Program-made: the position numbers and the translations under genes
From: a virus
Lineage: Duplodnaviria; Heunggongvirae; Uroviricota; Caudoviricetes
Reading direction: 5' to 3' (one strand)
Length of the DNA stretch: 12,399 nt
IMG/VR virus record: IMGVR_UViG_2534681737_000003
Notes under the pieces: generated by a model
Seen by the model: only the letters and a program-made list of their open reading frames with translations
Told to the model about the DNA's origin: nothing
Databases searched by the model: none
Shown here: positions 1 through 12,399 of the stretch, piece after piece
Layout: each line of letters opens with the position of its first letter
Numbering within the stretch: the first letter of the stretch is position 1

Positions 1-456
1 CTGTGCGTGGTCATCATTGCCCTGCTGGTGGCCTGTGGTGCGCTTAGTCTGGGGCTGAATCATTACCGTGATAACGCCATAACCTACAAAGAGCAGCGCG
101 ATAAAAAAGTCAGTGAGCTGGAGCAGGCAAATGCAACCATTACTGATATGCAGCAGCGCCAGCGTGATGTTGCTGCACTTGATGCCAGATACTCGAGGGA
201 ATTAGCCGATGCGAGAGCTGAAAATGAAACTCTTCGCGCTGACGTTGCCGCTGGTCGTAAGCGCCTGCGGATCAACGCCACCTGTCCAGGCTCCGTGCGT
301 GAAGCCCCCACCACCTCCGGCGTGGATAATGCAACCGGCCCCCAACTGGCAGACACCGTTACACGGGATTATTTCACCCTCAGAGAGCGGCTGATGACGA
401 TGCACAAGCAACTGGAAGGGGCACAGGACTATATCCGCACTCAGTGCCTGAAATAA
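1..456 (+). CDS. Rz: Spanin inner-membrane subunit (i-spanin) Rz, 5'-truncated by the window edge
   Basis: Track ORF 7..456; the frame is open from base 1. Translation ([12 protein letters not shown]...DVAAGRKRL...[19 protein letters not shown]) is collinear with lambda Rz as I recall it. N-terminal hydrophobic stretch consistent with the signal-anchor TM. The first few codons lie upstream of the window. Confidence 0.9.
209..394 (+). CDS. Rz1: Spanin outer-membrane lipoprotein subunit (o-spanin) Rz1, embedded in the +1 frame of Rz
   Basis: Track ORF 209..394 lies wholly inside Rz in another frame. It has a lipobox (LVVSAC) followed by a proline-rich segment ([14 protein letters not shown]) that matches lambda Rz1 closely. 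Start could be ATG 209 or ATG 224; 209 aligns better with the lambda N-terminus. Confidence 0.85.
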
Positions 457-806
457 GTTTTGTTGATGCGCCGTATCGTCGCTGTATTCCCTCATTAACA
501 GAGACCGCAGCCCGACAGGGAGACTCCTCTGCGCGAGTGTGCGGGGATAATCAAAAACGATACACACCGGGGTTTACCGCGTTAACGGAGCGCGGCGTTG
601 TCCCCTCATAGTCGCCTGTCCGGTGCGATGGTGGAAGAAGCCGGATGTTTATCACTATTAATTGATGACACAGAAATGGATTCATTGAATTTCAGCACGT
701 TTTTGTATTCGTGTTATTGAACATCTGTTTATTTTACTTTTAACATATTGATAATAAAAAGAGCTGTAAATCTTTAGATGAGTCGATTTTGTCCGGGGAA
801 GTTCAA

Positions 807-947
807 ATGGATTTTATGCTGACGGTTTCTGGTGTGGTTATCCTGTCCATTGCTTATACTGCAGATAAATATGGCTGCCATTTGTTATCACGTATTGGCG
901 CTTATTGTTCGTTGATGCTGATTTTCTCGTCGCTTTTTTTTGAGTAA
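807..947 (+). CDS. Hypothetical 46-aa hydrophobic peptide (possible small membrane protein; speculative)
   Basis: Hand-translated ATG 807 to TAA 945-947: MDFMLTVSGVVILSIAYTADKYGCHLLSRIGAYCSLMLIFSSLFFE. GGGGAAG 6 nt upstream could act as a weak SD. Sits in the AT-rich spacer. Below the track length cutoff; no homology recognised. Confidence 0.15.
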   Translation: MDFMLTVSGVVILSIAYTADKYGCHLLSRIGAYCSLMLIFSSLFFE

Positions 948-1079
948 GTTATATTAATTATAACAAATAATTTTCTGTGTTATTTTTTCAGGCTATCCCG
1001 TCAGAGGGGAAGCCTGTACTGCCGGGGAGCGAATGGAAAACTGATGTGTCCGGTAACTGCGTGTTCTGTGAACACCATG

Positions 1080-1265
1080 TTACTTAATTATGTAATTCAT
1101 ACCCGAACTCTCTGTTGACAGCCTTCTTCTGCAGGCTTCAATAACCCACGCTGAAAAGTTTCCTGAACCTTTCAGATCAAGAGCGATGTTAATTTGTTCA
1201 ATCATCTGGTTTGGAAATCGGATGTTGCGGGTTGTTGTTCTGCGGGTTCTGTTCTTTGATGACAT
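1080..1265 (-). CDS. Small putative ribbon-helix-helix DNA-binding protein, possibly YlcI/YnfO-like (DUF3950)
   Basis: Track ORF 61 aa (MSSKNRTRRTTTRNIRFPNQMIEQINIALDLKGSGNFSAWVIEACRRRL...). Basic N-terminus, then a short strand-like segment and two helix-like segments, as in RHH repressors. GGGGAAA SD-like motif about 5 nt upstream of the ATG on the minus strand. Position next to cos/Nu1 resembles where ylcI/ynfO-type genes sit in E. coli lambdoid prophages (from memory, unverified). Confidence 0.45.
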   Translation of the reverse strand: MSSKNRTRRTTTRNIRFPNQMIEQINIALDLKGSGNFSAWVIEACRRRLSTESSGMNYIIK

Positions 1266-1326
1266 AATGTTTCCCCATATTCAGTGTTGCTGATTTGTAT
1301 TATCTGAAGTTGCTTTTACGTTAATT

Positions 1327-1360
1327 TGACGCAGATCAATTAATACGATACCTGCGTCAT
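1327..1360. promoter_or_regulatory. Paired inverted repeats (candidate operator) upstream of the minus-strand small RHH-like gene
   Basis: TGACGCAG at 1327-1334 has its exact reverse complement CTGCGTCA at 1352-1359, and ATCAATTA is paired with TAATTGAT. Located 60-95 bp upstream of the 1265 start of the minus-strand ORF. Function inferred only. Confidence 0.25.
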
Positions 1361-1471
1361 AATTGATTATTTCTCGTGGTTTGATGGCGTACACACATGT
1401 TGTGATAAACCTTATATAGATGATAATTATTATCATTTCGTGGGTCCTTTCCGGCGATCCGACCGGTTACG

Positions 1472-1483
1472 GGGCGGCGACCT
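1472..1483 (+). other. cosN: cosN 12-nt cohesive-end sequence (terminase nicking site)
   Basis: Exact GGGCGGCGACCT, the lambda 5' single-stranded cohesive end, in the canonical context ...GGTTACG|GGGCGGCGACCT|CGCG. Confidence 0.85.
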
Positions 1484-1520
1484 CGCGGGTTTTCGCTATT
1501 TATGAAAATTTTCCGGGATC

Positions 1521-1619
1521 CATGTCCGGTTTCTCTTCAAGTTAACTATATGAAAAATATAAAAACAGGTCTTCTGTGAACCGGACATGAACAAAAAACA
1601 GACATGTAAACCGGACATG
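1521..1619. repeat. Three copies of AACCGGACATG (one inverted, two direct) in the cosB position: candidate small-terminase R-site binding elements
   Basis: CATGTCCGGTT at 1521-1531 (inverted), AACCGGACATG at 1579-1589 and 1609-1619 (direct, 30 bp apart), with an A-rich tract (1551-1566) between the first and second. Arrangement parallels lambda cosB (R3, IHF site, R2, R1); binding is inferred. Confidence 0.55.
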
Positions 1620-1666
1620 ACCGGTTTTGTTGTGATTGTGAGGTGAGAGTTTTTGCGAGGTGAGGA

Positions 1667-2176
1667 GTGGCTACGCAGACTGAAGTTGCCAGGCATTTGA
1701 GTCTGACCGATCGCCAGCTTCGCAGATTGCAGAAATTACCGGGTGCCCCGGTCTCGAATAAGCGAGGGCAACTGGATCTGGATGCCTGGCGCGATTTTTA
1801 CATATCGTATCTGAGAAGAAGTAAAAACGATGTGCCTGATGGCGATAGCGAAGAAGACTATGAAGAGAAATTGCTTATTGCCAGATGGGAACTGACAGCA
1901 GAACAGGCTGTTACACAGCAGTTAAAAAATGAGGTGTCAAAAGGAAAACTGATTGACACCGGGTTCTGTATTTTTGCCCTCAGTAAGCTGGCAATGGCGT
2001 TATCCAGTACGCTTGATTCCATCCCTTTATCCATGCAGCGACAGTTTCCTGATTTAACACCGCGCCATCTTGACCATCTGAAAACCCTTATTGCTAAGGG
2101 GGCAAATCAGTGTGCGCGGGCAGGGGATAAATTACCGGATTTACTTGATGAATATATCAGAGCAACAACTGAATAA
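1667..2176 (+). CDS. Nu1: Terminase small subunit (Nu1 homolog)
   Basis: Track ORF 169 aa with GTG start at 1667 (in-frame TGA at 1661-1663 prevents extension); GAGG SD-like motif upstream. C-terminal two thirds are collinear with lambda gpNu1 (e.g. FCIFALSKLA...IPLSMQRQFPDL..RHLDHLK); the N-terminus has an HTH-like segment. Confidence 0.9.
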   Translation: MATQTEVARHLSLTDRQLRRLQKLPGAPVSNKRGQLDLDAWRDFYISYLRRSKNDVPDGDSEEDYEEKLLIARWELTAEQAVTQQLKNEVSKGKLIDTGFCIFALSKLAMALSSTLDSIPLSMQRQFPDLTPRHLDHLKTLIAKGANQCARAGDKLPDLLDEYIRATTE

Positions 2177-4076
2177 TATGATGAGCGCTGTCACAACTGC
2201 ATTACAGCCCCTGATAAGGGCATTGCCGGTGACGCCAGTTGAATGGGCTGATCAAAATTATTATCTGCCTAAAGAATCTTCATATGGTGAGGGCGAATGG
2301 AAAACGCTGCCATTCCAGATCGCCATCATGAACAGCATGGGGAATGATCAGATCCGCACTGTTAATCTGATTAAATCTGCCCGTGTTGGCTATACAAAGA
2401 TGTTGCTGGGGGTGGTCGGGTATTTTATTGAGCATAAATCCCGAAACAGTCTGCTTTTTCAGCCCACGGATTCTGCCGCTGAAGATTTTATGAAGTCTCA
2501 CGTGGAGGCGACGATTCGGAACGTGCCATGCCTGAAAGACCTTTCCCCATGGCTGGGTCGTAAACATCGTGACAATACTCTCACGCTGAAACGCTTTTCA
2601 TCGGGCGTCGGTTTCTGGTGCCTGGGCGGCGCTGCCGCCAAAAACTACCGTGAAAAATCCGTGGACGTGGTCTGTTATGACGAGCTTTCCTCGTTCGAAC
2701 CGGATGTTGAAAAAGAGGGTTCGCCAACCCTGCTGGGGGATAAACGTATTGAGGGCTCTGTATGGCCAAAATCCATTCGCGGCTCGACGCCTAAAATCAA
2801 AGGCTCCTGCCAGATCGAAAAAGCCGCTAACGAGTCGGCACACTTCATGCGTTTTTATGTGCCCTGTCCGCACTGTGGGGAGGAGCAGTATCTGAAATTT
2901 GGCGATGATGCCTCGCCTTTCGGTCTTAAGTGGGAGAAGAATAAGCCAGAAAGTGTTTTCTACCTTTGTGAGCATCATGGCTGTGTGATCCATCAGTCTG
3001 AGCTTGACCAGAGTAACGGGCGGTGGATCTGTGAAAACACGGGCATGTGGACCCGTGACGGCCTGATGTTTTTCAGCGCCCGGGGTGATGAAATTCCGCC
3101 GCCGCGCTCCATCACTTTCCATATCTGGACGGCGTACAGTCCGTTCACCACCTGGGTACAGATTGTCTATGACTGGCTGGATGCACTGAAAGATCCCAAC
3201 GGCCTGAAAACCTTTGTGAACACCACGCTGGGCGAGACCTGGGAAGAGGCTGTGGGCGAAAAACTCGATCACCAGGTGCTGATGGATAAGGTTGTGCGTT
3301 ACACGGCGGCGGTGCCTGCCCGGGTGGTTTATCTGACGGCGGGCATTGACTCGCAGCGAAACCGTTTTGAGATGTATGTCTGGGGATGGGCTCCGGGAGA
3401 GGAAGCCTTTCTGGTGGATAAAATCATCATTATGGGGCGTCCTGATGAGGAAGAGACGCTGTTACGTGTGGATGCGGCGATCAACAAAAAATACCGCCAT
3501 GCGGATGGCACCGAAATGACTATTTCCCGTGTCTGCTGGGACACCGGGGGGATCGATGGTGAAATTGTTTATCAGAGATCAAAAAAACACGGTGTTTTCC
3601 GGGTGCTGCCGGTAAAAGGCGCATCTGTCTATGGCAAGCCGGTGATCACCATGCCAAAAACCCGCAATCAGCGGGGCGTGTATCTGTGTGAAGTGGGAAC
3701 GGACACCGCAAAAGAAATTCTCTATGCCCGTATGAAAGCCGATCCCTCGCCTGCGGATGAAGCCACGTCGTATGCCATCCGTTTTCCTGATGATCCGGAG
3801 ATTTTTTCGCAGACAGAGGCGCAGCAACTGGTCGCGGAAGAGCTTGTGGAGAAGTGGGAAAAAGGAAAGATGCGTCTGCTGTGGGATAACAAAAAGCGGC
3901 GTAACGAAGCGCTGGACTGCCTGGTGTATGCCTACGCGGCATTACGTGTGTCCGTGCAACGCTGGCAGCTTGATCTGGCTGTACTGGCAAAATCCCGGGA
4001 AGAAGAGACGACCCGGCCAACCCTTAAAGAACTGGCAGCGAAGCTGTCCGGAGGAGTGAATGGTTACAGTCGCTGA
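2148..4076 (+). CDS. A: Terminase large subunit (gpA homolog; ATPase/endonuclease)
   Basis: Track ORF 2091..4076; preferred start is ATG 2148 (MNISEQQLNNMM...), matching the lambda gpA N-terminus MNIS.. and giving 642 aa versus 641 in lambda. Extensive collinear identity (VEWAD.NYYLPKES, GGAAAKNYREKSVDV, PCPHCGEEQYLKFGD, TFVNTTLGETWE). Overlaps the Nu1 3' end by 29 nt, as in lambda. Confidence 0.95.
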   Translation: MNISEQQLNNMMSAVTTALQPLIRALPVTPVEWADQNYYLPKESSYGEGEWKTLPFQIAIMNSMGNDQIRTVNLIKSARVGYTKMLLGVVGYFIEHKSRNSLLFQPTDSAAEDFMKSHVEATIRNVPCLKDLSPWLGRKHRDNTLTLKRFSSGVGFWCLGGAAAKNYREKSVDVVCYDELSSFEPDVEKEGSPTLLGDKRIEGSVWPKSIRGSTPKIKGSCQIEKAANESAHFMRFYVPCPHCGEEQYLKFGDDASPFGLKWEKNKPESVFYLCEHHGCVIHQSELDQSNGRWICENTGMWTRDGLMFFSARGDEIPPPRSITFHIWTAYSPFTTWVQIVYDWLDALKDPNGLKTFVNTTLGETWEEAVGEKLDHQVLMDKVVRYTAAVPARVVYLTAGIDSQRNRFEMYVWGWAPGEEAFLVDKIIIMGRPDEEETLLRVDAAINKKYRHADGTEMTISRVCWDTGGIDGEIVYQRSKKHGVFRVLPVKGASVYGKPVITMPKTRNQRGVYLCEVGTDTAKEILYARMKADPSPADEATSYAIRFPDDPEIFSQTEAQQLVAEELVEKWEKGKMRLLWDNKKRRNEALDCLVYAYAALRVSVQRWQLDLAVLAKSREEETTRPTLKELAAKLSGGVNGYSR

Positions 4077-4266
4077 ACTGCAGGCGCTGCGTCAGGCGCG
4101 CCTTGATTTATTAACCGGTAAACGGGTGGTGTCTGTCCAGAAAGATGGTCGCAGAATTGAATATACGGCGGCTTCTCTGGATGAGCTTAACCGGGCGATC
4201 AATGATGCGGAGTCGGTACTGGGGACAACCCGGTGTCGCCGTCGTCCGCTGGGAGTGAGATTATGA
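4060..4266 (+). CDS. W: Head-tail joining / head completion protein gpW homolog
   Basis: 68-aa ORF; MVTVAELQALRQARLDLLTGKRVVSVQKDGRRIEY resembles lambda gpW (68 aa). GGAGGAG SD at 4051-4057. Overlaps the end of A and the start of B. Confidence 0.9.
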   Translation: MVTVAELQALRQARLDLLTGKRVVSVQKDGRRIEYTAASLDELNRAINDAESVLGTTRCRRRPLGVRL

Positions 4267-5855
4267 AACGAACGCCTGTCCTGATTGATGTGAACGGCGT
4301 TCCGCTTCGTGAGAGTCTCAGCTACAACGGGGGCGGTGCAGGATTTGGCGGGCAAATGGCTGAGTGGTTGCCACCGGCGCAGAGTGCCGATGCGGCCCTG
4401 CTGCCCGCGTTGCGTCTGGGGAATGCCCGGGCAGATGATCTGGTGCGCAATAACGGAATAGCGGCTAATGCGGTGGCTCTGCATAAGGATCACATTGTCG
4501 GGCATATGTTTCTGATCAGCTACCGTCCGAACTGGCGCTGGCTGGGGATGCGGGAGACCGCAGCAAAAAGCTTTGTCGATGAGGTGGAGGCGGCCTGGTC
4601 GGAATACGCCGAAGGGATGTCTGGCGAGATCGACGTGGAAGGAAAACGCACGTTCACGGAATTTATCCGTGAAGGTGTGGGCGTTCATGCGTTTAACGGC
4701 GAAATCTTTGTGCAGCCGGTCTGGGATACGGAAACCACGCAGTTATTCCGTACGCGTTTTAAAGCCGTGAGTCCGAAACGGGTGGACACGCCTGGACACG
4801 GTATGGGGAACCGTTTTCTGCGGGCCGGTGTGGAGGTCGATCGATATGGCCGTGCCGTCGCGTACCATATCTGTGAGGATGATTTTCCGTTCTCTGGTAG
4901 TGGACGATGGGAACGGATCCCGCGTGAACTTCCCACCGGGCGTCCGGCCATGCTGCATATTTTCGAGCCGGTGGAGGACGGGCAGACCCGTGGGGCTAAT
5001 CAGTTTTACAGCGTCATGGAACGGCTGAAGATGCTCGATTCCCTGCAGGCAACACAGCTTCAGTCGGCCATAGTGAAGGCGATGTATGCAGCGACGATTG
5101 AAAGTGAACTTGATACCGAAAAGGCCTTTGAATATATCGCCGGCGCGCCACAGGAGCAGAAGGATAATCCGCTTATTAATATTCTGGAGAAGTTTTCCAG
5201 CTGGTATGACACGAATAACGTGACACTGGGCGGTGTCAAAATTCCGCACCTTTTCCCTGGTGATGATCTGAAACTACAGACTGCGCAGGATTCAGACAAT
5301 GGATTTTCTGCGCTTGAACAGGCGCTGCTGCGGTATATCGCCGCCGGTCTTGGCGTTTCCTACGAACAGTTGTCCCGTGATTACTCGAAGGTCAGTTACT
5401 CAAGTGCCCGCGCCTCCGCCAATGAGTCGTGGCGCTATTTTATGGGGCGGCGAAAATTTATTGCGGCCCGGCTGGCCACGCAGATGTTTTCCTGCTGGCT
5501 GGAAGAGGCACTTCTTCGGGGGATTATTCGTCCGCCACGGGCACGTTTTGATTTTTATCAGGCGCGATCAGCCTGGTCACGGGCAGAGTGGATTGGTGCC
5601 GGAAGAATGGCCATTGACGGGCTCAAGGAAGTCCAGGAATCAGTGATGCGCATTGAGGCCGGACTGAGCACGTATGAGAAAGAGCTGGCGCTGATGGGCG
5701 AGGATTATCAGGACATTTTCCGCCAGCAGGTCAGGGAATCTGCTGAGCGGCAAAAAGCCGGACTCTCACGTCCGGTGTGGATAGCGCGGGCGTATCAGCA
5801 GCAGATAGCGGAGAGTCGCAGGCCGGAAGAGGAGACAACACCCCGTGAGACGTAA
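4263..5855 (+). CDS. B: Portal protein (gpB homolog)
   Basis: Track ORF 4233..5855; preferred start ATG 4263 (MKRTPVLI..) forms an ATGA overlap with the W stop. 530 aa versus 533 in lambda. Strongly collinear with lambda gpB (NARADDLVRNNG, FEPVEDGQTRGAN.FYSVME, LQSAIVKAMYAATIESELDT, LLRYIAAGLGVSYEQLSR, GRMAIDGLKEVQE). Confidence 0.95.
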   Translation: MKRTPVLIDVNGVPLRESLSYNGGGAGFGGQMAEWLPPAQSADAALLPALRLGNARADDLVRNNGIAANAVALHKDHIVGHMFLISYRPNWRWLGMRETAAKSFVDEVEAAWSEYAEGMSGEIDVEGKRTFTEFIREGVGVHAFNGEIFVQPVWDTETTQLFRTRFKAVSPKRVDTPGHGMGNRFLRAGVEVDRYGRAVAYHICEDDFPFSGSGRWERIPRELPTGRPAMLHIFEPVEDGQTRGANQFYSVMERLKMLDSLQATQLQSAIVKAMYAATIESELDTEKAFEYIAGAPQEQKDNPLINILEKFSSWYDTNNVTLGGVKIPHLFPGDDLKLQTAQDSDNGFSALEQALLRYIAAGLGVSYEQLSRDYSKVSYSSARASANESWRYFMGRRKFIAARLATQMFSCWLEEALLRGIIRPPRARFDFYQARSAWSRAEWIGAGRMAIDGLKEVQESVMRIEAGLSTYEKELALMGEDYQDIFRQQVRESAERQKAGLSRPVWIARAYQQQIAESRRPEEETTPRET

Positions 5856-7350
5856 TCTTTCACACATTATTGCCGCAGCATTCAATGAACCGCTGCTTCT
5901 GGAGCCCGCCTATGCGCGGGTTTTCTTTTGCGCGCTCGGGCGCGAGATGGGGGCAGCAAGTCTTTCGGTACCACAGCAGCAGGTACAGCTTGATGCTCCC
6001 GGAATGCTGGCTGAAACGGACGAGTACATGGCCGGAGGTAAACGACCGGCCCGTGTTTACCGGGTGGTGAACGGTATTGCTGTACTGCCGGTGACCGGCA
6101 CGCTGGTGCACCGGCTGGGGGGTATGCGGCCATTTTCCGGAATGACAGGCTATGACGGCATTGTCGCCTGTCTTCAGCAGGCAATGGCGGATAGCCAGGT
6201 GCGGGGCGTACTGCTGGACATTGACAGTCCGGGCGGGCAGGCCGCCGGCGCGTTTGACTGCGCTGACATGATTTACCGCCTCCGTCAGCAGAAGCCGGTC
6301 TGGGCACTGTGCAATGACACGGCCTGTTCTGCAGCCATGCTGCTGGCGTCGGCCTGCTCCCGACGGCTGGTTACCCAGACATCCCGTATCGGCTCCATTG
6401 GCGTGATGATGAGCCATGTCAGCTATGCCGGTCATCTGGCGCAGGCCGGTGTGGATATCACGCTGATTTACTCAGGGGCGCACAAGGTGGATGGCAATCA
6501 GTTTGAAGCCTTACCGGCAGAGGTTCGCCAGGACATGCAGCAGCGCATTGATGCGGCGCGCCGGATGTTTGCCGAAAAAGTGGCCATGTTTACCGGTCTG
6601 TCTGTTGATGCCGTCACGGGAACAGAGGCCGCCGTTTTTGAAGGTCAGTCCGGCATTGATGCCGGGCTGGCGGATGAATTAGTCAATGCGTCGGATGCCA
6701 TCAGTGTGATGGCCACGGCGCTGAACAGTAATGTCAGAGGAGGCACTATGCCGCAATTAACTGCAACGGAAGCCGCCGCGCAGGAGAACCAGCGAGTGAT
6801 GGGGATCCTGACATGCCAGGAAGCGAAAGGACGTGAACAGCTTGCCACGATGCTGGCAGGACAACAGGGCATGAGCGTTGAACAGGCCCGGGCGATTCTG
6901 GCCGCGGCGGCACCGCAGCAGCCGGTGGCATCCACGCAGAGTGAAGCCGATCGCATTATGGCGTGTGAAGAAGCGAACGGTCGTGAACAACTGGCGGCAA
7001 CGCTGGCGGCGATGCCGGAGATGACGGTGGAAAAAGCCCGCCCGATCCTGGCTGCTTCACCGCAGGCGGATGCCGGACCCTCACTCCGTGATCAGATCAT
7101 GGCACTGGATGAGGCAAAAGGGGCTGAGGCGCAGGCTGAACAGCTGGCTGCCTGCCCGGGAATGACTGTGGAGAGCGCCCGGGCTGTGCTGGCTGTGGGA
7201 TCAGGTAAGGCAGAACCGGTCTCTGCATCCACAACCGCCCTGTTTGAACGCATCATGGCGAACCATTCACCGGCAGCGGTACAGGGTGGCGTGCCACAGA
7301 CGTCAGCAGACGGTGATGCGGACGTGAAAATGCTCATGGCTATGCCATGA
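5845..7350 (+). CDS. C: Prohead protease / scaffold protein gpC homolog (S49/ClpP-like serine peptidase, N-terminal part) with repeat-rich C-terminal scaffold region
   Basis: Track ORF 501 aa, GTG start with GAGGAG SD about 10 nt upstream; overlaps the B stop. N-terminus AAFNEPLLLEPAYARVFF and the peptidase core (IDSPGG..AGAFDCADMI, PVWAL.ND.A.SAA.LLASA.SRRLVTQT.R.GSIGVMM) are collinear with lambda gpC. About 60 aa longer than lambda C (439 aa). Confidence 0.9.
   Translation: MRRNLSHIIAAAFNEPLLLEPAYARVFFCALGREMGAASLSVPQQQVQLDAPGMLAETDEYMAGGKRPARVYRVVNGIAVLPVTGTLVHRLGGMRPFSGMTGYDGIVACLQQAMADSQVRGVLLDIDSPGGQAAGAFDCADMIYRLRQQKPVWALCNDTACSAAMLLASACSRRLVTQTSRIGSIGVMMSHVSYAGHLAQAGVDITLIYSGAHKVDGNQFEALPAEVRQDMQQRIDAARRMFAEKVAMFTGLSVDAVTGTEAAVFEGQSGIDAGLADELVNASDAISVMATALNSNVRGGTMPQLTATEAAAQENQRVMGILTCQEAKGREQLATMLAGQQGMSVEQARAILAAAAPQQPVASTQSEADRIMACEEANGREQLAATLAAMPEMTVEKARPILAASPQADAGPSLRDQIMALDEAKGAEAQAEQLAACPGMTVESARAVLAVGSGKAEPVSASTTALFERIMANHSPAAVQGGVPQTSADGDADVKMLMAMP
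6748..7350 (+). CDS. Nu3: Candidate Nu3-type scaffolding protein from an in-frame internal start within C
   Basis: Strong internal RBS AGGAGG (6737-6742) 5 nt before in-frame ATG 6748 (MPQLTATEAAAQ...); shares the C stop at 7350. In lambda, Nu3 is likewise nested in-frame in the 3' part of C. The exact start is inferred. Confidence 0.5.
   Translation: MPQLTATEAAAQENQRVMGILTCQEAKGREQLATMLAGQQGMSVEQARAILAAAAPQQPVASTQSEADRIMACEEANGREQLAATLAAMPEMTVEKARPILAASPQADAGPSLRDQIMALDEAKGAEAQAEQLAACPGMTVESARAVLAVGSGKAEPVSASTTALFERIMANHSPAAVQGGVPQTSADGDADVKMLMAMP
6793..7290 (+). repeat. Three (plus a partial fourth) diverged tandem repeats of about 47-53 codons within the C/Nu3 scaffold region
   Basis: Protein-level repeats starting at nt 6793, 6952 and 7093: RVMGILTCQEAKGREQLATMLAGQQGMSVEQARAILAAAAPQ / RIMACEEANGREQLAATLAAMPEMTVEKARPILAASPQ / QIMALDEAKGAEAQAEQLAACPGMTVESARAVLAVGSG, then a partial ERIMANHSPAAVQ near 7246. 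The DNA copies are diverged, so not a recent duplication. Confidence 0.7.
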
Positions 7351-7386
7351 AGTCAGTGCTGACCATCAACAGGAGGTTTTTACAAT

Positions 7387-7734
7387 ATGGTAACGAAAAC
7401 CATCACTGAACAGCGTGCGGAAGTACGTATTTTTGCCGGTAATGATCCGGCTCATACCGCCACAGGCAGCAGCGGGATTTCCTCGGCAACACCGGCACTG
7501 ACGCCCCTGATGCTGGATGAAGCTACCGGGAAACTGGTGGTCTGGGACGGACAGAAAGCCGGTAGTGCGGTTGGCATACTGGTACTGCCGCTTGAAGGCA
7601 CAGAGACGGTACTGACGTATTACAAGTCGGGGACCTTTGCGACGGAGGCAATCCGCTGGCCTGACAGTGTGGATGAACACAAAAAGGCAAATGCCTTTGC
7701 CGGCAGTGCCCTGAGTCACGCGGCGCTGCCGTAA
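7387..7734 (+). CDS. D: Head decoration protein gpD homolog
   Basis: 115-aa track ORF; NDPAHTATG....A.TPLMLD....KLV.WDG...G.AVGIL and YKSGTF.....WP......KK.AFAG.A.S match lambda gpD (110 aa). GGAGG SD upstream. Confidence 0.9.
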   Translation: MVTKTITEQRAEVRIFAGNDPAHTATGSSGISSATPALTPLMLDEATGKLVVWDGQKAGSAVGILVLPLEGTETVLTYYKSGTFATEAIRWPDSVDEHKKANAFAGSALSHAALP

Positions 7735-7791
7735 CACGTTATCAGGCCACCGCGGTGGCCTGACTGATTTCTGAATGAAAGGAACTGATTT

Positions 7792-8820
7792 ATGGGATTG
7801 TTTACGACCCGCCAGTTACTCGGTTATACCGAACAAAAAGTGAAATTTCGTGCGCTGTTTCTGGAGCTGTTTTTCCGCCGTACGGTGAATTTCCATACCG
7901 AAGAGGTGATGCTGGACAAAATTACCGGAAAAACGCCGGTGGCGGCCTATGTTTCCCCGGTTGTTGAAGGAAAAGTGCTGCGTCATCGTGGTGGTGAAAC
8001 CCGCGTGTTACGTCCGGGCTACGTCAAGCCGAAACACGAATTTAATTACCAGCAGGCGGTTGAGCGTCTTCCCGGTGAAGATCCGGCTCAGCTGAACGAC
8101 CCGGCCTACCGTCGTCTGCGTATCATCACTGATAACCTCAAACAGGAAGAGCACGCCATTGTCCAGGTGGAAGAAATGCAGGCGGTGAATGCCGTGCTGT
8201 ATGGCAAATACACGATGGAAGGAGACCAGTTCGAGAAAATTGAGGTCGATTTTGGCAGGTCGACGAAGAATAACATCACTCAGGGTAGTGGTAAGGAGTG
8301 GTCAAAACAGGATCGTGACACGTTCGATCCTACACATGATCTTGACCTCTACTGCGACCAGGCCAGCGGTCTTGTGAATATTGCCATTATGGACGGTACC
8401 GTCTGGCGTCTGCTGAATGGCTTTAAATTGTTCCGCGAAAAACTGGATACCCGTCGCGGCTCTAATTCGCAACTCGAAACAGCGGTGAAAGACCTGGGCG
8501 CGGTGGTGTCCTTCAAAGGGTATTACGGCGATCTGGCCATTGTGGTGGCAAAAACGTCTTATGTGGCAGAGGACGGTACCGAAAAACGTTATCTGCCTGA
8601 GGGCTCGCTGGTCCTGGGGAATACGGCAGCAGAGGGCATTCGTTGCTATGGTGCCATTCAGGATGCGCAGGCGTTGTCCGAAGGTGTGGTGGCCTCTTCC
8701 CGTTATCCGAAACACTGGCTGACGGTAGGGGATCCCGCCCGTGAATTTACCATGACGCAGTCCGCGCCGCTGATGGTGTTGCCGGACCCGGATGAGTTTG
8801 TGGTGGTACAGGTGAAATAA
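7792..8820 (+). CDS. E: Major capsid protein gpE homolog
   Basis: 342-aa track ORF versus 341 in lambda; collinear identity throughout (PGYVKPKHE, DPAYRRLRII, AIVQVEEMQAVNAVLYGKYTM, KLDTRRGSNS.LETAVKDLG, AIVVAK, GDPAREFTMTQSAPLMVLPDPDEFV). Confidence 0.95.
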   Translation: MGLFTTRQLLGYTEQKVKFRALFLELFFRRTVNFHTEEVMLDKITGKTPVAAYVSPVVEGKVLRHRGGETRVLRPGYVKPKHEFNYQQAVERLPGEDPAQLNDPAYRRLRIITDNLKQEEHAIVQVEEMQAVNAVLYGKYTMEGDQFEKIEVDFGRSTKNNITQGSGKEWSKQDRDTFDPTHDLDLYCDQASGLVNIAIMDGTVWRLLNGFKLFREKLDTRRGSNSQLETAVKDLGAVVSFKGYYGDLAIVVAKTSYVAEDGTEKRYLPEGSLVLGNTAAEGIRCYGAIQDAQALSEGVVASSRYPKHWLTVGDPAREFTMTQSAPLMVLPDPDEFVVVQVK

Positions 8821-8828
8821 TCCGTGAG

Positions 8829-8858
8829 CGGGGGCGAAATGCCCCCGTGTCTTTTTTC
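8829..8858 (+). terminator. GC-rich stem-loop plus T-run immediately after the major capsid gene (candidate partial terminator or mRNA-stabilising hairpin)
   Basis: CGGGGGC (8829-8835), loop GAAAT, GCCCCCG (8841-8847), then TGTCTTTTTTCAC with a T6 run at 8852-8857. Lies between the E stop (8820) and the FI start (8872). Function inferred; any termination is probably partial since downstream tail genes sit in the same operon. Confidence 0.4.
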
Positions 8859-8871
8859 ACAGGGGGATGAT

Positions 8872-9246
8872 ATGGCAACGAAAGAGCAAAATCTGAAACG
8901 GCTTGATGAACTGGCCCTGATTCTGGGGCGTGAGCCGGATATATCCGGGAGTGCCGCAGAGATAGCGCAGCGGGTGGCAGAATGGGAAGAGGAAATGCAG
9001 TCATCCGGCGATGATGTACAGGTTATGAATATGGATATCCGGGAGAGGGAAAACGCGGCTCATGATGTTCGTGAGGAAACATCCGGCGCGTTAACGCGCA
9101 TCAGAGTTCTGACCTGCCTCCATCTCTGTGGCGTTGATGGTGAAACGGGGGAATCCGTTGAGCTTGCGGATGTTGGTCGGGTGATTCTGATTATGTCCTC
9201 AGATGCAAAAACACACGTTGATGGTGGAATGGCTGTTTATGCGTGA
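8872..9246 (+). CDS. FI: DNA packaging / head-tail assembly protein gpFI homolog
   Basis: Track ORF 8824..9246; preferred start ATG 8872 (MATKEQNLKRL...) follows SD AGGGGGA, which avoids overlapping the hairpin. 124 aa, acidic, in the lambda FI position. Sequence similarity to lambda FI is weaker than for neighbours; assignment mainly by synteny and size. Confidence 0.75.
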   Translation: MATKEQNLKRLDELALILGREPDISGSAAEIAQRVAEWEEEMQSSGDDVQVMNMDIRERENAAHDVREETSGALTRIRVLTCLHLCGVDGETGESVELADVGRVILIMSSDAKTHVDGGMAVYA

Positions 9247-9592
9247 TTTTCAGAATGCCTTTGATGCCGCCCTTGCCGGGGTGGACAGTACGATTGTTGA
9301 AGTGATGGGCATCAGTGCGCAGTTCACCTCCGGTGCACAGCGTGGCGGCGAAGTTCAGGGGGTTTTTGACGATCCGGAGTCGCTGGGTTTTGCCAGTAGT
9401 GGGATCCGTATTGAAGGAAGCAGCCCGTCATTATTTGTGCGGACGGATACGGTTCGTGCCGTGCGGCGTGGTGACACGTTGACCATTAATGGTGAGACGT
9501 TCTGGGTGGATCGTGTTTCTCCGGATGACGGGGGCAGTTGTTATCTCTGGCTGAACCGTGGGCAACCACCCGCAGTTAACCGGCGACGATAA
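9239..9592 (+). CDS. FII: Head completion protein gpFII homolog
   Basis: Track ORF 9203..9592; preferred start ATG 9239 (MRDFQNAFDAALAG...) gives 117 aa as in lambda. Near-identical C-terminus to lambda FII (IRIEGSSPSLFVRTD.VR..RRGDTLTI....FWVDRVSPDDGGSC.LWL.RG.PPAVNRRR). Overlaps the FI stop. Confidence 0.9.
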   Translation: MRDFQNAFDAALAGVDSTIVEVMGISAQFTSGAQRGGEVQGVFDDPESLGFASSGIRIEGSSPSLFVRTDTVRAVRRGDTLTINGETFWVDRVSPDDGGSCYLWLNRGQPPAVNRRR

Positions 9593-9606
9593 ACGCAGGG
9601 TGAATT

Positions 9607-10182
9607 ATGGCGATAAAAGGGCTTGATCAGGCGATTGAAAATCTGAGCCGGGTTCGTAAAAACGCCATTCCGTCGGCTTCAGCAATGGCTATTAACCGCG
9701 TGGCTACAACGGCGATTAATCAGTCTTCATCACAGGTTGCCCGGGAGACCAGGGTGAGCCGGAAACTGGTAAAGGAACGGTCCAGACTGAAACGGGCCAC
9801 GGTCAGAAATCCGAATGCCAGAATTATCGTTAACCGCGGTGATCTCCCTGCTATTAAGCTGGGGATCAGGATGCTTGGTCATCGTCCGAACAGCATACTT
9901 AAAGCCGGTCAGCATCGTTATCAGCGGGCATTCATCCAGCGATTAAATAATGGGCGCTGGCATGTTATGCAACGTTTGCCAGAAGCCCGGTATGCGAAGG
10001 GCAATGACGATAAAGGAAGGAAAAAGCGTAATCGTCTTCCCATTCAGGTGGTTAAAATTCCGATGGCGGCCCCACTGAAGCAGGCTTTTGATGAGAACGT
10101 TAACCGTATCCGGCGAGAACGTCTGCCAAAAGAACTGGGCTATGCGTTGAAACAACAACTAAGGATTGTGATAAAGCGATGA
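9607..10182 (+). CDS. Z: Tail completion protein gpZ homolog
   Basis: 191 aa versus 192 in lambda; MAIKGL.QA.ENLSR....A.P.A.AMAINRVA..AI.QS.SQVARET.V.RKLVKER.RLKRATV.NP.ARI.VNRGDLP.IKLG and C-terminus IERIRRERLPKELGYAL..QLR.VIKR match lambda gpZ. Confidence 0.9.
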   Translation: MAIKGLDQAIENLSRVRKNAIPSASAMAINRVATTAINQSSSQVARETRVSRKLVKERSRLKRATVRNPNARIIVNRGDLPAIKLGIRMLGHRPNSILKAGQHRYQRAFIQRLNNGRWHVMQRLPEARYAKGNDDKGRKKRNRLPIQVVKIPMAAPLKQAFDENVNRIRRERLPKELGYALKQQLRIVIKR

Positions 10183-10574
10183 AACATACTGATATCCGTG
10201 CTGCAGTGCTGGATGCACTCGAGCAGCATGAACACGGGGCGACGCTGTTTGACGGTCGCCCCGCTGTTTTTGATGAGGCGGATTTTCCGGCAATTGCTGT
10301 TTATCTCACCGGCGCTGAATACACGGGCGAAGCGCTGGACAGCGATACCTGGCAGGCGGAGCTGCATATTGAAGTTTTCCTGCCTGCTCAGGTGCCGGAT
10401 TCAGAGCTGGATTCGTGGATGGAAAGCCGGATTTATCCGGCGATGAGTGCGATCCCGGCACTGTCAGGCCTGATTACCACGATGGTTACGCAGGGCTATG
10501 AGTATCGTCGTGATGACGATATGGCGTTATGGAGTTCTGCTGATTTGACTTATTCCATTACATACGAGATGTGA
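10179..10574 (+). CDS. U: Tail terminator protein gpU homolog
   Basis: 131 aa; near-identical to lambda gpU over most of its length ([79 protein letters not shown]). ATGA overlap with the Z stop. Confidence 0.92.
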
Positions 10575-10581
10575 GGACGAT

Positions 10582-11334
10582 ATGCCAACACCAAATCCTC
10601 TGGCACCGGTAAAAGGTGCCGGTACCACCCTGTGGGTTTATAACGGTCAGGGTGATGCCTATGCAAACCCGTTGTCAGACGATAACTGGCAGCGACTGGC
10701 ACAGGTAAAGGATCTGACGCCGGGCGAGATGACGGCAGAACCCTACGATGATAACTACCTGGATGATGAAGACGCGGACTGGACTGCGACCGGGCAGGGG
10801 CAGAAGTCTGCAGGAGATACCAGTTTTACGCTGGCCTGGAAACCGGGAGAAGAAGGTCAGAAAGGGCTTATAGGCTGGTTTGAAAGCGGGGATGTGCGGG
10901 CCTATAAAATCCGTTTCCCGAACGGCACGGTGGATGTGTTCCGTGGCTGGGTCAGCAGTATCGGTAAGGCCGTAACGGCGAAGGAAGTGATCACCCGTAC
11001 GGTGAAAGTGACCAACGTGGGTAAACCTTCTGTGGCGGAAGAACGCAGCGAAATTACGCCGGTCACTGCGATTAAGGTGACGCCGACATCTGGTACGGTG
11101 GCAAAAGGGAAAACAACAACCCTGACGGTTTCTTTTGAGCCGGAAAGTGCAACCGACAAAACGTTCAGAGCGGTTTCCGCCGATCCGTCAACGGGAACCA
11201 TTGCTGTGAAAGATATGGCGATCACTGTGACGGGGGTTAAGGCTGGAAAAGTGAGTATCCCCGTGATTTCCGGTAATGGTCAGTTTGCCACGGTAGCTGA
11301 AGTCACCGTTACTGAAGCGGGCGCTGCAGGGTAA
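10582..11334 (+). CDS. V: Major tail tube protein gpV homolog with C-terminal Ig-like (Big_2-type) domain
   Basis: 250 aa versus 246 in lambda; N-terminal 150 aa near-identical to lambda gpV ([114 protein letters not shown]). More variable C-terminal Ig-like domain. Confidence 0.95.
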
Positions 11335-11347
11335 ACGGAGGTAATAC

Positions 11348-11779
11348 ATGTTTCTGAAAACCGAACAATTTGAATATAACGGTGTGTCCGTCACGCTTTC
11401 CGAGCTGTCTGCGCTGCAGCGTATCGAGCATCTTGCCCTGCTGAAACGACGGGCAGAACAGGCTGAAGCCAGCGGTAACCTGCAGGTGAGCGTGGAAGAC
11501 CTTGTCAGAACCGGCGCGTTTCTGGTGGCGATGTCCCTGTGGCATAACCATCCACAGAAAACGGAGTCACCATCAATGAATGAGGCTGTGATGCAGATCG
11601 AACAGGAGGTGCTCACCACCTGGCCTGCTGATGCCATTGCCCGGGCGGAAGACGTGGTGTTGCGTCTGTCCGGGATGAGCGGGGCTGTTCATGTGGATAC
11701 GGATATCACCGAAGTGGCGAAAAATAACGCGCTTACTGATGATGATTTTTCTGCGGGAAAGTCTTCGACGGCGAGCTGA
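11348..11779 (+). CDS. G: Tail assembly chaperone gpG homolog (zero-frame product of the G/GT frameshift pair)
   Basis: 143 aa; [35 protein letters not shown].......[52 protein letters not shown] near-identical to lambda gpG. Ends ...SAGKSSTAS like lambda (..SAGKCSTVS). Confidence 0.92.
11755..11761 (+). other. Programmed -1 ribosomal frameshift slippery heptamer G GGA AAG (G to G-T)
   Basis: GGGAAAG at 11755-11761 in the zero frame of G (codons GGA 11756-11758, AAG 11759-11761), the same heptamer and position (about 6 codons before the G stop) as in lambda. The -1 frame downstream is open and lambda-T-like. Confidence 0.8.
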
Positions 11780-12399
11780 ATTTTGCCCTCAGACTGGCGC
11801 GAGAGATGGGGAGGCCTGACTGGCGCGCCATGCTTGCCGGGATGACATCCACCGAATATGCCGACTGGCGACATTTTTACCGCACGCATTATTTTCAGGA
11901 TACCCAACTGGATATGCATTTTTCCGGGCTGATGTACGCTGTACTCAGCCTGTTTTTTTGCGATCCGGATATCGGGGCAACCGGTGAACGGGGACCGAGA
12001 GGAGATACAGGTCCGGCAGGTCCGCAGGGGCCGAAAGGCGACAGGGGAGAGCGGGGAGATACCGGTCTGACGGGAAGCGCAGGTCCACAGGGTCCAAAGG
12101 GAGATACCGGTGCGGCAGGCCCGGCAGGCCCACAGGGACCGAAAGGAGAAACAGGTGCGGCTGGCCCGGTGGGGGCAACCGGACCTCAGGGACCGAAGGG
12201 CGACCCGGGGGAGACACAAATCCGTTTTCGTCTGGGGCCGGGAAACATTATTGAGACAAACAGCCATGGCTGGTTCCCGGATACAGATGGCGCACTCATC
12301 ACCGGACTGACCTTTCTTGACCCCAAAGATGCCACACGGGTTCAGGGTTTTTTTCAGCATTTGCAGGTCAGGTTTGGTGACGGGCCGTGGCAGGATGTC
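11761..12399 (+). CDS. -1 frame continuation of G: lambda gpT-like N-terminal segment (about 70 aa) fused in-frame to a collagen-like Gly-X-Y repeat and a further domain; 3'-truncated by the window edge
   Basis: Hand-translated from 11761: [70 protein letters not shown] is collinear with the lambda gpT region just after the frameshift, then diverges into the Gly-X-Y triplets and [63 protein letters not shown]. No stop to 12399. Absent from the track, most likely because it has no in-window stop. Confidence 0.65.
11974..12216 (+). repeat. Collagen-like triple-helix repeat, 27 uninterrupted Gly-X-Y triplets (coding-level repeat)
   Basis: Frame 1: [81 protein letters not shown]. The GPQGPKG(D/E) unit recurs four times with synonymous codon differences. 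Confidence 0.85.

Follow-up and report, generated by a model that had tools for sequence, protein, structure and literature searches.

In phage lambda the tail genes follow one another in the order V-G-T-H-M-L-K-I-J-lom-stf, and the locus described here raises the question of what has happened to a lambda-like prophage in which T runs, after 55 codons, directly into a collagen-like repeat. The window, by which we mean the whole stretch of 12,399 nucleotides that was analysed, is the late region of such a prophage, read on the plus strand; its first feature is the end of a lysis gene, which is followed by Nu1, A, W, B, C, D, E, FI, FII, Z, U, V, and G (Table 1). Nu1 through V (1667-11334) are intact, their lengths in the list of open reading frames being equal to those of intact relatives; the gene calls and Pfam families for this part were taken from the relative L020 and from the intact relatives L005-L014. 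The gene for the tail assembly chaperone G is complete as well, and an equal gene of 432 bp is annotated as gpG (WP_000479086.1) by RefSeq in three relatives. Up to this point the window and phage lambda are alike in their gene order, in G, in the slip site G GGA AAG, and in the N-terminus of T; they part at codon 56 of T, where the gene breaks off and a piece of a fibre gene stands in the place of lambda's H.

Table 1. Features of the locus. Positions are those of the window, except where a locus of a sister genome is named.
Feature	Position	Strand	Basis or remark
Nu1	1667-2176	+	ORF list
A	2148-4076	+	ORF list
W	4060-4266	+	ORF list
B	4263-5855	+	ORF list
C	5845-7350	+	ORF list
D	7387-7734	+	ORF list
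E	7792-8820	+	ORF list
FI	8824-9246	+	ORF list
FII	9239-9592	+	ORF list
Z	9607-10182	+	ORF list
U	10179-10574	+	ORF list
V	10582-11334	+	ORF list
G, tail assembly chaperone, 143 aa, complete	11348-11779	+	Pfam Phage_TAC_2, E = 3e-50
G/T -1 frameshift slippery heptamer G GGA AAG, conserved	11755-11761	+	read from sequence
Truncated T (T')	11761-11972	+	slip site to breakpoint; no mismatch to intact T up to 11972
Deletion junction	11972/11973		three-way alignments, window vs T parent vs fibre parent
Collagen-like region, 27 GXY triplets	11974-12216	+	translation; Pfam Collagen E = 2.6e-15
163-bp interval, no differences among window, sister-lineage, and yehV/mlrA alleles	12079-12241		mismatch maps
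Phage_fiber_C domain, runs off window	12220-12399	+	Pfam PF06820 E = 5.8e-33, profile 1-60/64
Secondary head/connector deletions	L016 15216-15275 and 15748-15807; L017 15216-15275; L019 10284-10343 and 10619-10678		

Alignment of the window with the parent of its T segment and the parent of its fibre segment resolves the junction to the nucleotide. The T parent reads ...GATCCGGATAT up to the break and GCATCC beyond it; the fibre parent reads ...GGCCCTGT up to the break and CGGGGCAACC beyond it. The breakpoint lies between 11971/11972 and 11972/11973, T11972 being the sole base common to both parents. T is left after position 2 of codon 56 (of 137) and the fibre gene is entered at position 3 of codon 280 (of 437); the resulting chimeric codon ATC (Ile, 11971-11973) keeps the reading frame, and the fusion of T' to the fibre is thus in frame. 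An earlier note, made from the sequence of the window, had described lambda-like collinearity from Nu1 through G into the N-terminus of T, ending at a breakpoint inside T at approximately 11965-11975. Gene lengths and gene order that match those of intact relatives bear out the first of these statements, and the alignments bear out and sharpen the second; the microhomology that the note proposed to look for at the junction comes down to a single nucleotide, T11972, which is essentially none.

The break is equally sharp in database searches. To its left, the segment 11340-11972 shows zero mismatches to intact prophages, for example those of E2865 and DEC5B. With the whole window as query, 1,280 genomes are matched over 80% of its length or more, and the best 15 of these 1,280 all end at 11972; the closest among the matches listed is that of the O55:H7 strain DEC5B, at 99.6%. 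With the segment 11340-12399 as query, 3,511 of 5,426 complete E. coli genomes give a partial match and one covers the segment in full (the O157:H16 strain 98-3133, at 99.0% identity); the other best matches listed, with the exception of 2013C-4974, cover 11340-11972, many of them at 100%, and then end. Phage records show the same pattern, stopping at this point when queried across the junction, at 95% identity.

On the T side of the junction, the slippery heptamer has the phase that is required, and from it onward the T frame (-1, overlapping the end of G) is open. The frameshift by which this arrangement yields gpG and gpGT is an established mechanism in lambda. In translation, the -1 frame of the window reads ...LSLFFCDPD and then passes into GXY triplets without an intervening stop codon, T' keeping 55 of the 137 annotated codons of T. 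The Pfam family Phage_tail_T (PF06223) accordingly matches the T of the window only over profile positions 1-36 of 73, with 27.7 bits, whereas the intact T of DEC5B is matched over positions 1-72 of 73; a complete T domain is absent from the window. In ten of ten unrelated contexts that encode the V protein of the window, which served as controls, T is followed by a tape-measure gene (TMP_2); in the window and six relatives, T' runs into collagen and Fiber_C, and not into a tape-measure gene. Late expression would be predicted to give, at a low level and by way of the G/T frameshift, a G-T'-collagen-Fiber_C chimera of 366 residues. Gene callers start the fusion at an internal methionine instead, which yields an open reading frame of 213 aa that has been given the name 'tail assembly protein T'. 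We consider the T'-collagen-Fiber_C chimera to be a by-product, probably without function, because it contains half a T domain, has no tape measure to bind, and lacks the domain by which a fibre is attached.

On the fibre side, the junction is followed by the last 157 codons of a prophage tail fibre of about 437 residues. The segment 11973-12399 matches the bodies of full-length prophage tail-fibre genes in 718 genomes, at 97-99.5% identity and with a median of 10 copies per genome; its best match is in the O103 strain ML775, at 99.5% DNA identity. Intact fibres of this kind are composed, by Pfam, of phage_tail_N, Collagen, and Phage_fiber_C. Of these, phage_tail_N (PF08400), which occupies residues 1-133 of the intact ML775 fibre, is absent from the open reading frame of the window; the collagen-like region corresponds to residues 281-361 of the 437-residue ML775 fibre, and the succession of a collagen GXY run and Phage_fiber_C is present as it is in the fibres of EHEC and EPEC prophages. 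Where the window breaks off within Phage_fiber_C, the IMG/VR contig L024, which is 100% identical there, continues to the complete domain (64 of 64 profile positions) and to the fibre stop codon, 48 nt past the end of the window. The collagen open reading frame is thus the C-terminal third of an EHEC/EPEC-type prophage fibre located after lom; its identification with the Stf protein of lambda is ruled out, as its domains are those of the phage_tail_N/collagen/Phage_fiber_C family.

What stood between the two halves of the junction can be read from DEC5B (E. coli O55:H7, NZ_CP038389.1, approximately 2.083-2.111 Mb), which carries the intact counterpart of the prophage, 99.6% identical to window 1-11972. 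In DEC5B, G is followed by T (137 aa), the tape measure, M, L, K (a C40 peptidase), I, J, Lom, a fibre of 404 aa, and Fiber_C; beyond Fiber_C come IS2, four genes for effectors of the NleG family, and the integrase of a neighbouring prophage. Relative to DEC5B, the window has a gap of 10,282 bp, a figure that is an estimate because the fibre allele of the immediate ancestor differs from that of DEC5B (87.5% identity). These 10,282 bp hold the rest of T, the genes H, M, L, K, I, J, and lom, and fibre codons 1-279. The junction-bearing strain 98-3133 (O157:H16, closed genome NZ_CP051001.1; loci L001 and L016) agrees with DEC5B in its four NleG genes, whose proteins have identical RefSeq accessions in both, and in the prophage next to them; DEC5B differs in the shorter collagen run of its fibre allele and in the IS2 that is inserted after Fiber_C. 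Both flanks are therefore collinear with the intact prophage of DEC5B while the essential genes between them are absent, which is what identifies a prophage with an internal deletion.

These observations make it very probable that a lambda-like E. coli prophage with effector cargo lost about 10.3 kb in one illegitimate deletion, of which the junction is the scar, and that the prophage is now defective. The deletion fused T at codon 56 with the fibre gene after lom at codon 280, and took out the C-terminus of T, the tape measure H, the genes M, L, K, I, J, and lom, and the N-terminal attachment domain and coiled coil of the fibre; Z, U, V, and G were spared, as were the packaging, head, and connector genes. 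A prophage that lacks H, M, L, K, I, and J would be expected to assemble neither a tail tip nor a tube on its own; it is kept in the chromosome together with its cargo of type III effectors. The molecular route is one that we infer: a single illegitimate event, in the sense of one that is essentially independent of homology, fits the junction because the two parents share only one base. Illegitimate recombination of both kinds, dependent on short homologies and independent of them, is produced by E. coli.

The junction is rare and is confined to one lineage, that of the relatives of O157:H16 98-3133. Close relatives were found by looking up the variant of the terminase large subunit that is encoded in the window. 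The 25-mer that spans the junction occurs in the window and in six other assemblies (98-3133, L019, L020, L021, L022, and L024), and has no exact match among the GTDB species representatives, as is to be expected where each species is represented by one genome. L020 has the architecture of the window, with 11 mismatches in 12,398 bases (1-12398); L021 is identical to the window and ends, as a contig, at window 12077; L024 is 100% identical to window 8123-12399. At the protein level, the 213-aa chimeric open reading frame of the 98-3133 type is found on 12 contigs in the protein collection, in which the chimera of the window type has no exact match. RefSeq already flags both halves of the junction in NZ_CP051001.1 as incomplete pseudogenes; a literature search found the general phenomenon, and no paper on the T::fibre junction or on the prophages of 98-3133.

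The window ends at 12399, and the context downstream of it was read from these relatives. In 98-3133, the sequence continues past the junction with the fibre remnant, a Fiber_C gene of 89 aa, the four NleG proteins, and the neighbouring prophage of DEC5B; the annotation of the 20 kb to either side shows no tape-measure gene and none for M, L, K, I, or J. The same succession of junction, Fiber_C, and NleG genes is found in four loci (L016, which is that of 98-3133, L019, L020, and L022). In L024, the part that lies past the end of the window contains the end of the 213-aa open reading frame, the 89-aa Fiber_C gene, an IS remnant, a frameshifted EspS, an element of the IS3 family, a YkgJ pseudogene, and nleA, and this downstream stretch of 5.7 kb contains no tail module. 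It (L024 1-5731, minus strand) is the distal cargo of a degraded prophage at the mlrA/yehV site of strain STECUZB006, and the same 5.7-kb cargo lies about 240 kb from the T::fibre prophage in 98-3133. At its other end, L024 has a peculiarity of its own: its last 80 nt (1-80 of the reverse complement) match without a difference a segment that lies ahead of the holin gene in 98-3133, and they abut the capsid gene E at window 8123. This marks either a further deletion variant or a chimeric contig, so that L024 and the window come from different assemblies.

The loss of some 8-10 kb of tail genes from within T, as the earlier note had it, is supported by the gap of 10,282 bp, and the comparison with related prophages that it recommended finds the left flank, and in 98-3133 the NleG cargo, shared with DEC5B; to this is added that lom and the N-terminal domain of the fibre are lost too. 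The note had also named the finding that would speak against a deletion, namely an intact tail module immediately downstream, with the collagen open reading frame as an independent gene. This arrangement is not seen in the relatives that were read, and H, M, L, K, I, and J follow the junction in none of those with the identical junction that run past it.

Mismatch maps show that the fibre remnant of the window and of L024 is a mosaic. Its first part, 11973-12078, has the sister-lineage allele (that of 98-3133 and L020), set apart from the yehV allele by 11 differences; its last part, 12242-12399 (158 bases), has the allele found in the prophage at the yehV/mlrA site, set apart from the sister-lineage allele by 12 differences; the interval between them is the same in all (Table 1). 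The mosaic arose either by homologous exchange between the fibre genes of two prophages after the deletion, or as an assembly path through the 163-bp repeat, a reading with which the break of the L021 contig there (window 12077) agrees. As the last 158 bases carry the yehV/mlrA allele, the cargo downstream of the window may be either the NleG cluster or NleA; by exchange and by assembly path alike, the sequences predict that no tail genes would follow the junction.

Decay of the prophage has continued in the sister genomes. Window 7393-9027 and 9570-10215 are missing from 98-3133 and L022, and window 7794-8702 and 9042-10190 from L019; in L017, C is joined directly to Fiber_C (7392 to 12282), and in L018 (18354-18413), U is joined to the fibre (10530 to 11970-11973). 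These secondary junctions show microhomologies of 2-9 nt, for example GATATCCG. The nested deletions are a record of the progressive decay of an effector-carrying prophage, and this series speaks against the lineage having been under selection to keep head or tail function. Some endpoints recur: window 7392 is the left endpoint of two deletions (7392 to 9028 in L016 and L022, 7392 to 12282 in L017), and the right endpoint of the U::fibre deletion in L018 falls within 3 nt of the T::fibre junction, by way of a TAT microhomology. The latter is either a secondary deletion that ended at the old scar by chance, or an independent event, in which case the site is a hot spot. A GGATA/GATATC hot spot at the deletion endpoints was considered and rejected, as most of the recurrences are explained by microhomology pairing between partner sites and a test would be post hoc. 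A further variation on the prophage is seen in another sister genome, L015 (12988-21929, GCA_015472365.1), where the portal gene B is interrupted by an inserted element with an integrase, AlpA, Bro-N, a D5_N/DUF5906 primase, SSB, a Phage_cap_E-like capsid gene, and an HDPD decoration gene, which resembles a capsid-forming phage satellite.

A comparable deletion arose independently in the unrelated strain 2013C-4974 (NZ_CP027587.1; L003 12000-13572), where the tape-measure gene breaks off after its first 78 codons and runs on into the final 798 bp of the fibre gene. There, too, the tail module is deleted, the right endpoint lies in the fibre gene, and Fiber_C is kept together with effector cargo (NleH, Cif). 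The deletion differs in that its left endpoint lies in H and not in T, its breakpoint in the fibre is further upstream, and its junction is out of frame; it affects another prophage, with other cargo, from which most of the A-G region has been lost as well. By their annotated open reading frame coordinates, the fusions in L018 and L003 are out of frame, and the remnant in L017 is called as a separate open reading frame. Selection for an in-frame fusion was therefore rejected as an explanation, one of four fibre-ending tail deletions being in frame, which is the chance expectation.

Against an internal deletion it could be held that the T of this prophage recombined illegitimately with the fibre gene of another prophage in the same chromosome, as part of a larger rearrangement. 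The fibre segment is indeed present in a median of ten copies per genome, and the distal fibre remnant of the window and L024, as well as the next 5.7 kb of L024, belong to the prophage at the yehV/mlrA site. However, 98-3133, L019, L020, and L022 carry after the junction exactly the NleG cargo of DEC5B, and 98-3133 has the neighbouring prophage of DEC5B in addition, so that an internal deletion is sufficient. Moreover, the first 106 bases past the junction are of the sister-lineage allele and the switch to the yehV allele comes only later, inside the 163-bp identical stretch, a pattern that fits a secondary homologous exchange or an assembly path, and not the primary event. An exchange with another prophage is thus improbable as the origin of the scar.

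Still less probable, and to an extent that leaves them hardly any weight, are two readings in which there is no deletion scar at all. In one, the junction was created in assembly, T and a repeated gene having been put together in a chimeric contig. Short-read contigs do end at fibre genes, which are repeats with many copies, as the contig of L021 does at window 12077, and the distal 158 bases of the window may themselves be a path artefact; yet T and the fibre gene have no repeat in common at the junction, and as they share only 1 nt there, an assembler would have had no reason to join them. The identical 25-mer, furthermore, recurs in six more assemblies that were made independently, one of them the closed chromosome NZ_CP051001.1. 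In the other, T'-collagen-Fiber_C is a normal, selected gene of a tail module that is organised differently, or the tail genes lie elsewhere in the prophage; the fusion being in frame, the intact G/T slip site, and the intact structural genes upstream are what could be expected of such a gene. It is difficult to reconcile with the closed genome of 98-3133, in which the tape-measure, M, L, K, I, and J genes are missing from 20 kb on either side of the junction, and with the fusion itself, in which the T domain is halved and the fibre is without its N-terminal attachment domain. The fusion is also limited to one lineage, within which the sister genomes L017 and L018 delete it further, and a single in-frame junction among four comparable deletions fits chance. 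An internal deletion in a prophage that has gone on decaying remains the reading that we favour.

Such a deletion has many precedents. In the lambdoid prophages of EHEC and EPEC, defects caused by the deletion of morphogenetic genes are the rule, and of the ten lambda-organised prophages of O157 Sakai, three (Sp8, Sp10, and Sp11) keep all of their morphogenetic genes; some of the defective Sakai prophages are packaged and transferred nonetheless, probably by means of virion proteins from neighbouring prophages (Asadulghani et al., 2009; PMC2669165). The prophage described here is like those of the Sakai Sp pool in its lambda-like late-gene order, in the type III effector cargo downstream of its tail fibre, in that morphogenetic genes have been lost (through deletions or the insertion of IS elements), and in that several near-identical prophages share one chromosome and exchange segments. 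The T::fibre scar is thus a case of ordinary prophage decay, of a kind that is already known.

With Nu1-FII, Z, U, V, and G intact, packaging into heads may still occur, and it is conceivable, though unlikely, that the tail-less prophage packages its genome into heads that are completed with the tails of co-resident lambdoid prophages, and so mobilises its effector cargo. If this were true, the prophage would be comparable to capsid-forming satellites, and the fact that the 3' end of the fibre gene, the Fiber_C gene, and the cargo are kept in every deletion variant would speak of selection on the cargo. That tail piracy is maintained as a strategy is unlikely, since the sister genomes rapidly lose further head genes.

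No new biological question arises from these findings, as defective lambdoid prophages and their complementation by neighbours are well documented (PMC2669165). Their value lies mainly in annotation: the 213-aa 'tail assembly protein T' is a pseudogene fusion, T'::fibre', and not a chaperone that bears a collagen domain. The junction is, in addition, a clean, lineage-specific typing marker for the relatives of O157:H16 98-3133, and together with the nested deletions it forms a small natural series that shows a lambdoid prophage with effector genes being pared down and its cargo preserved.
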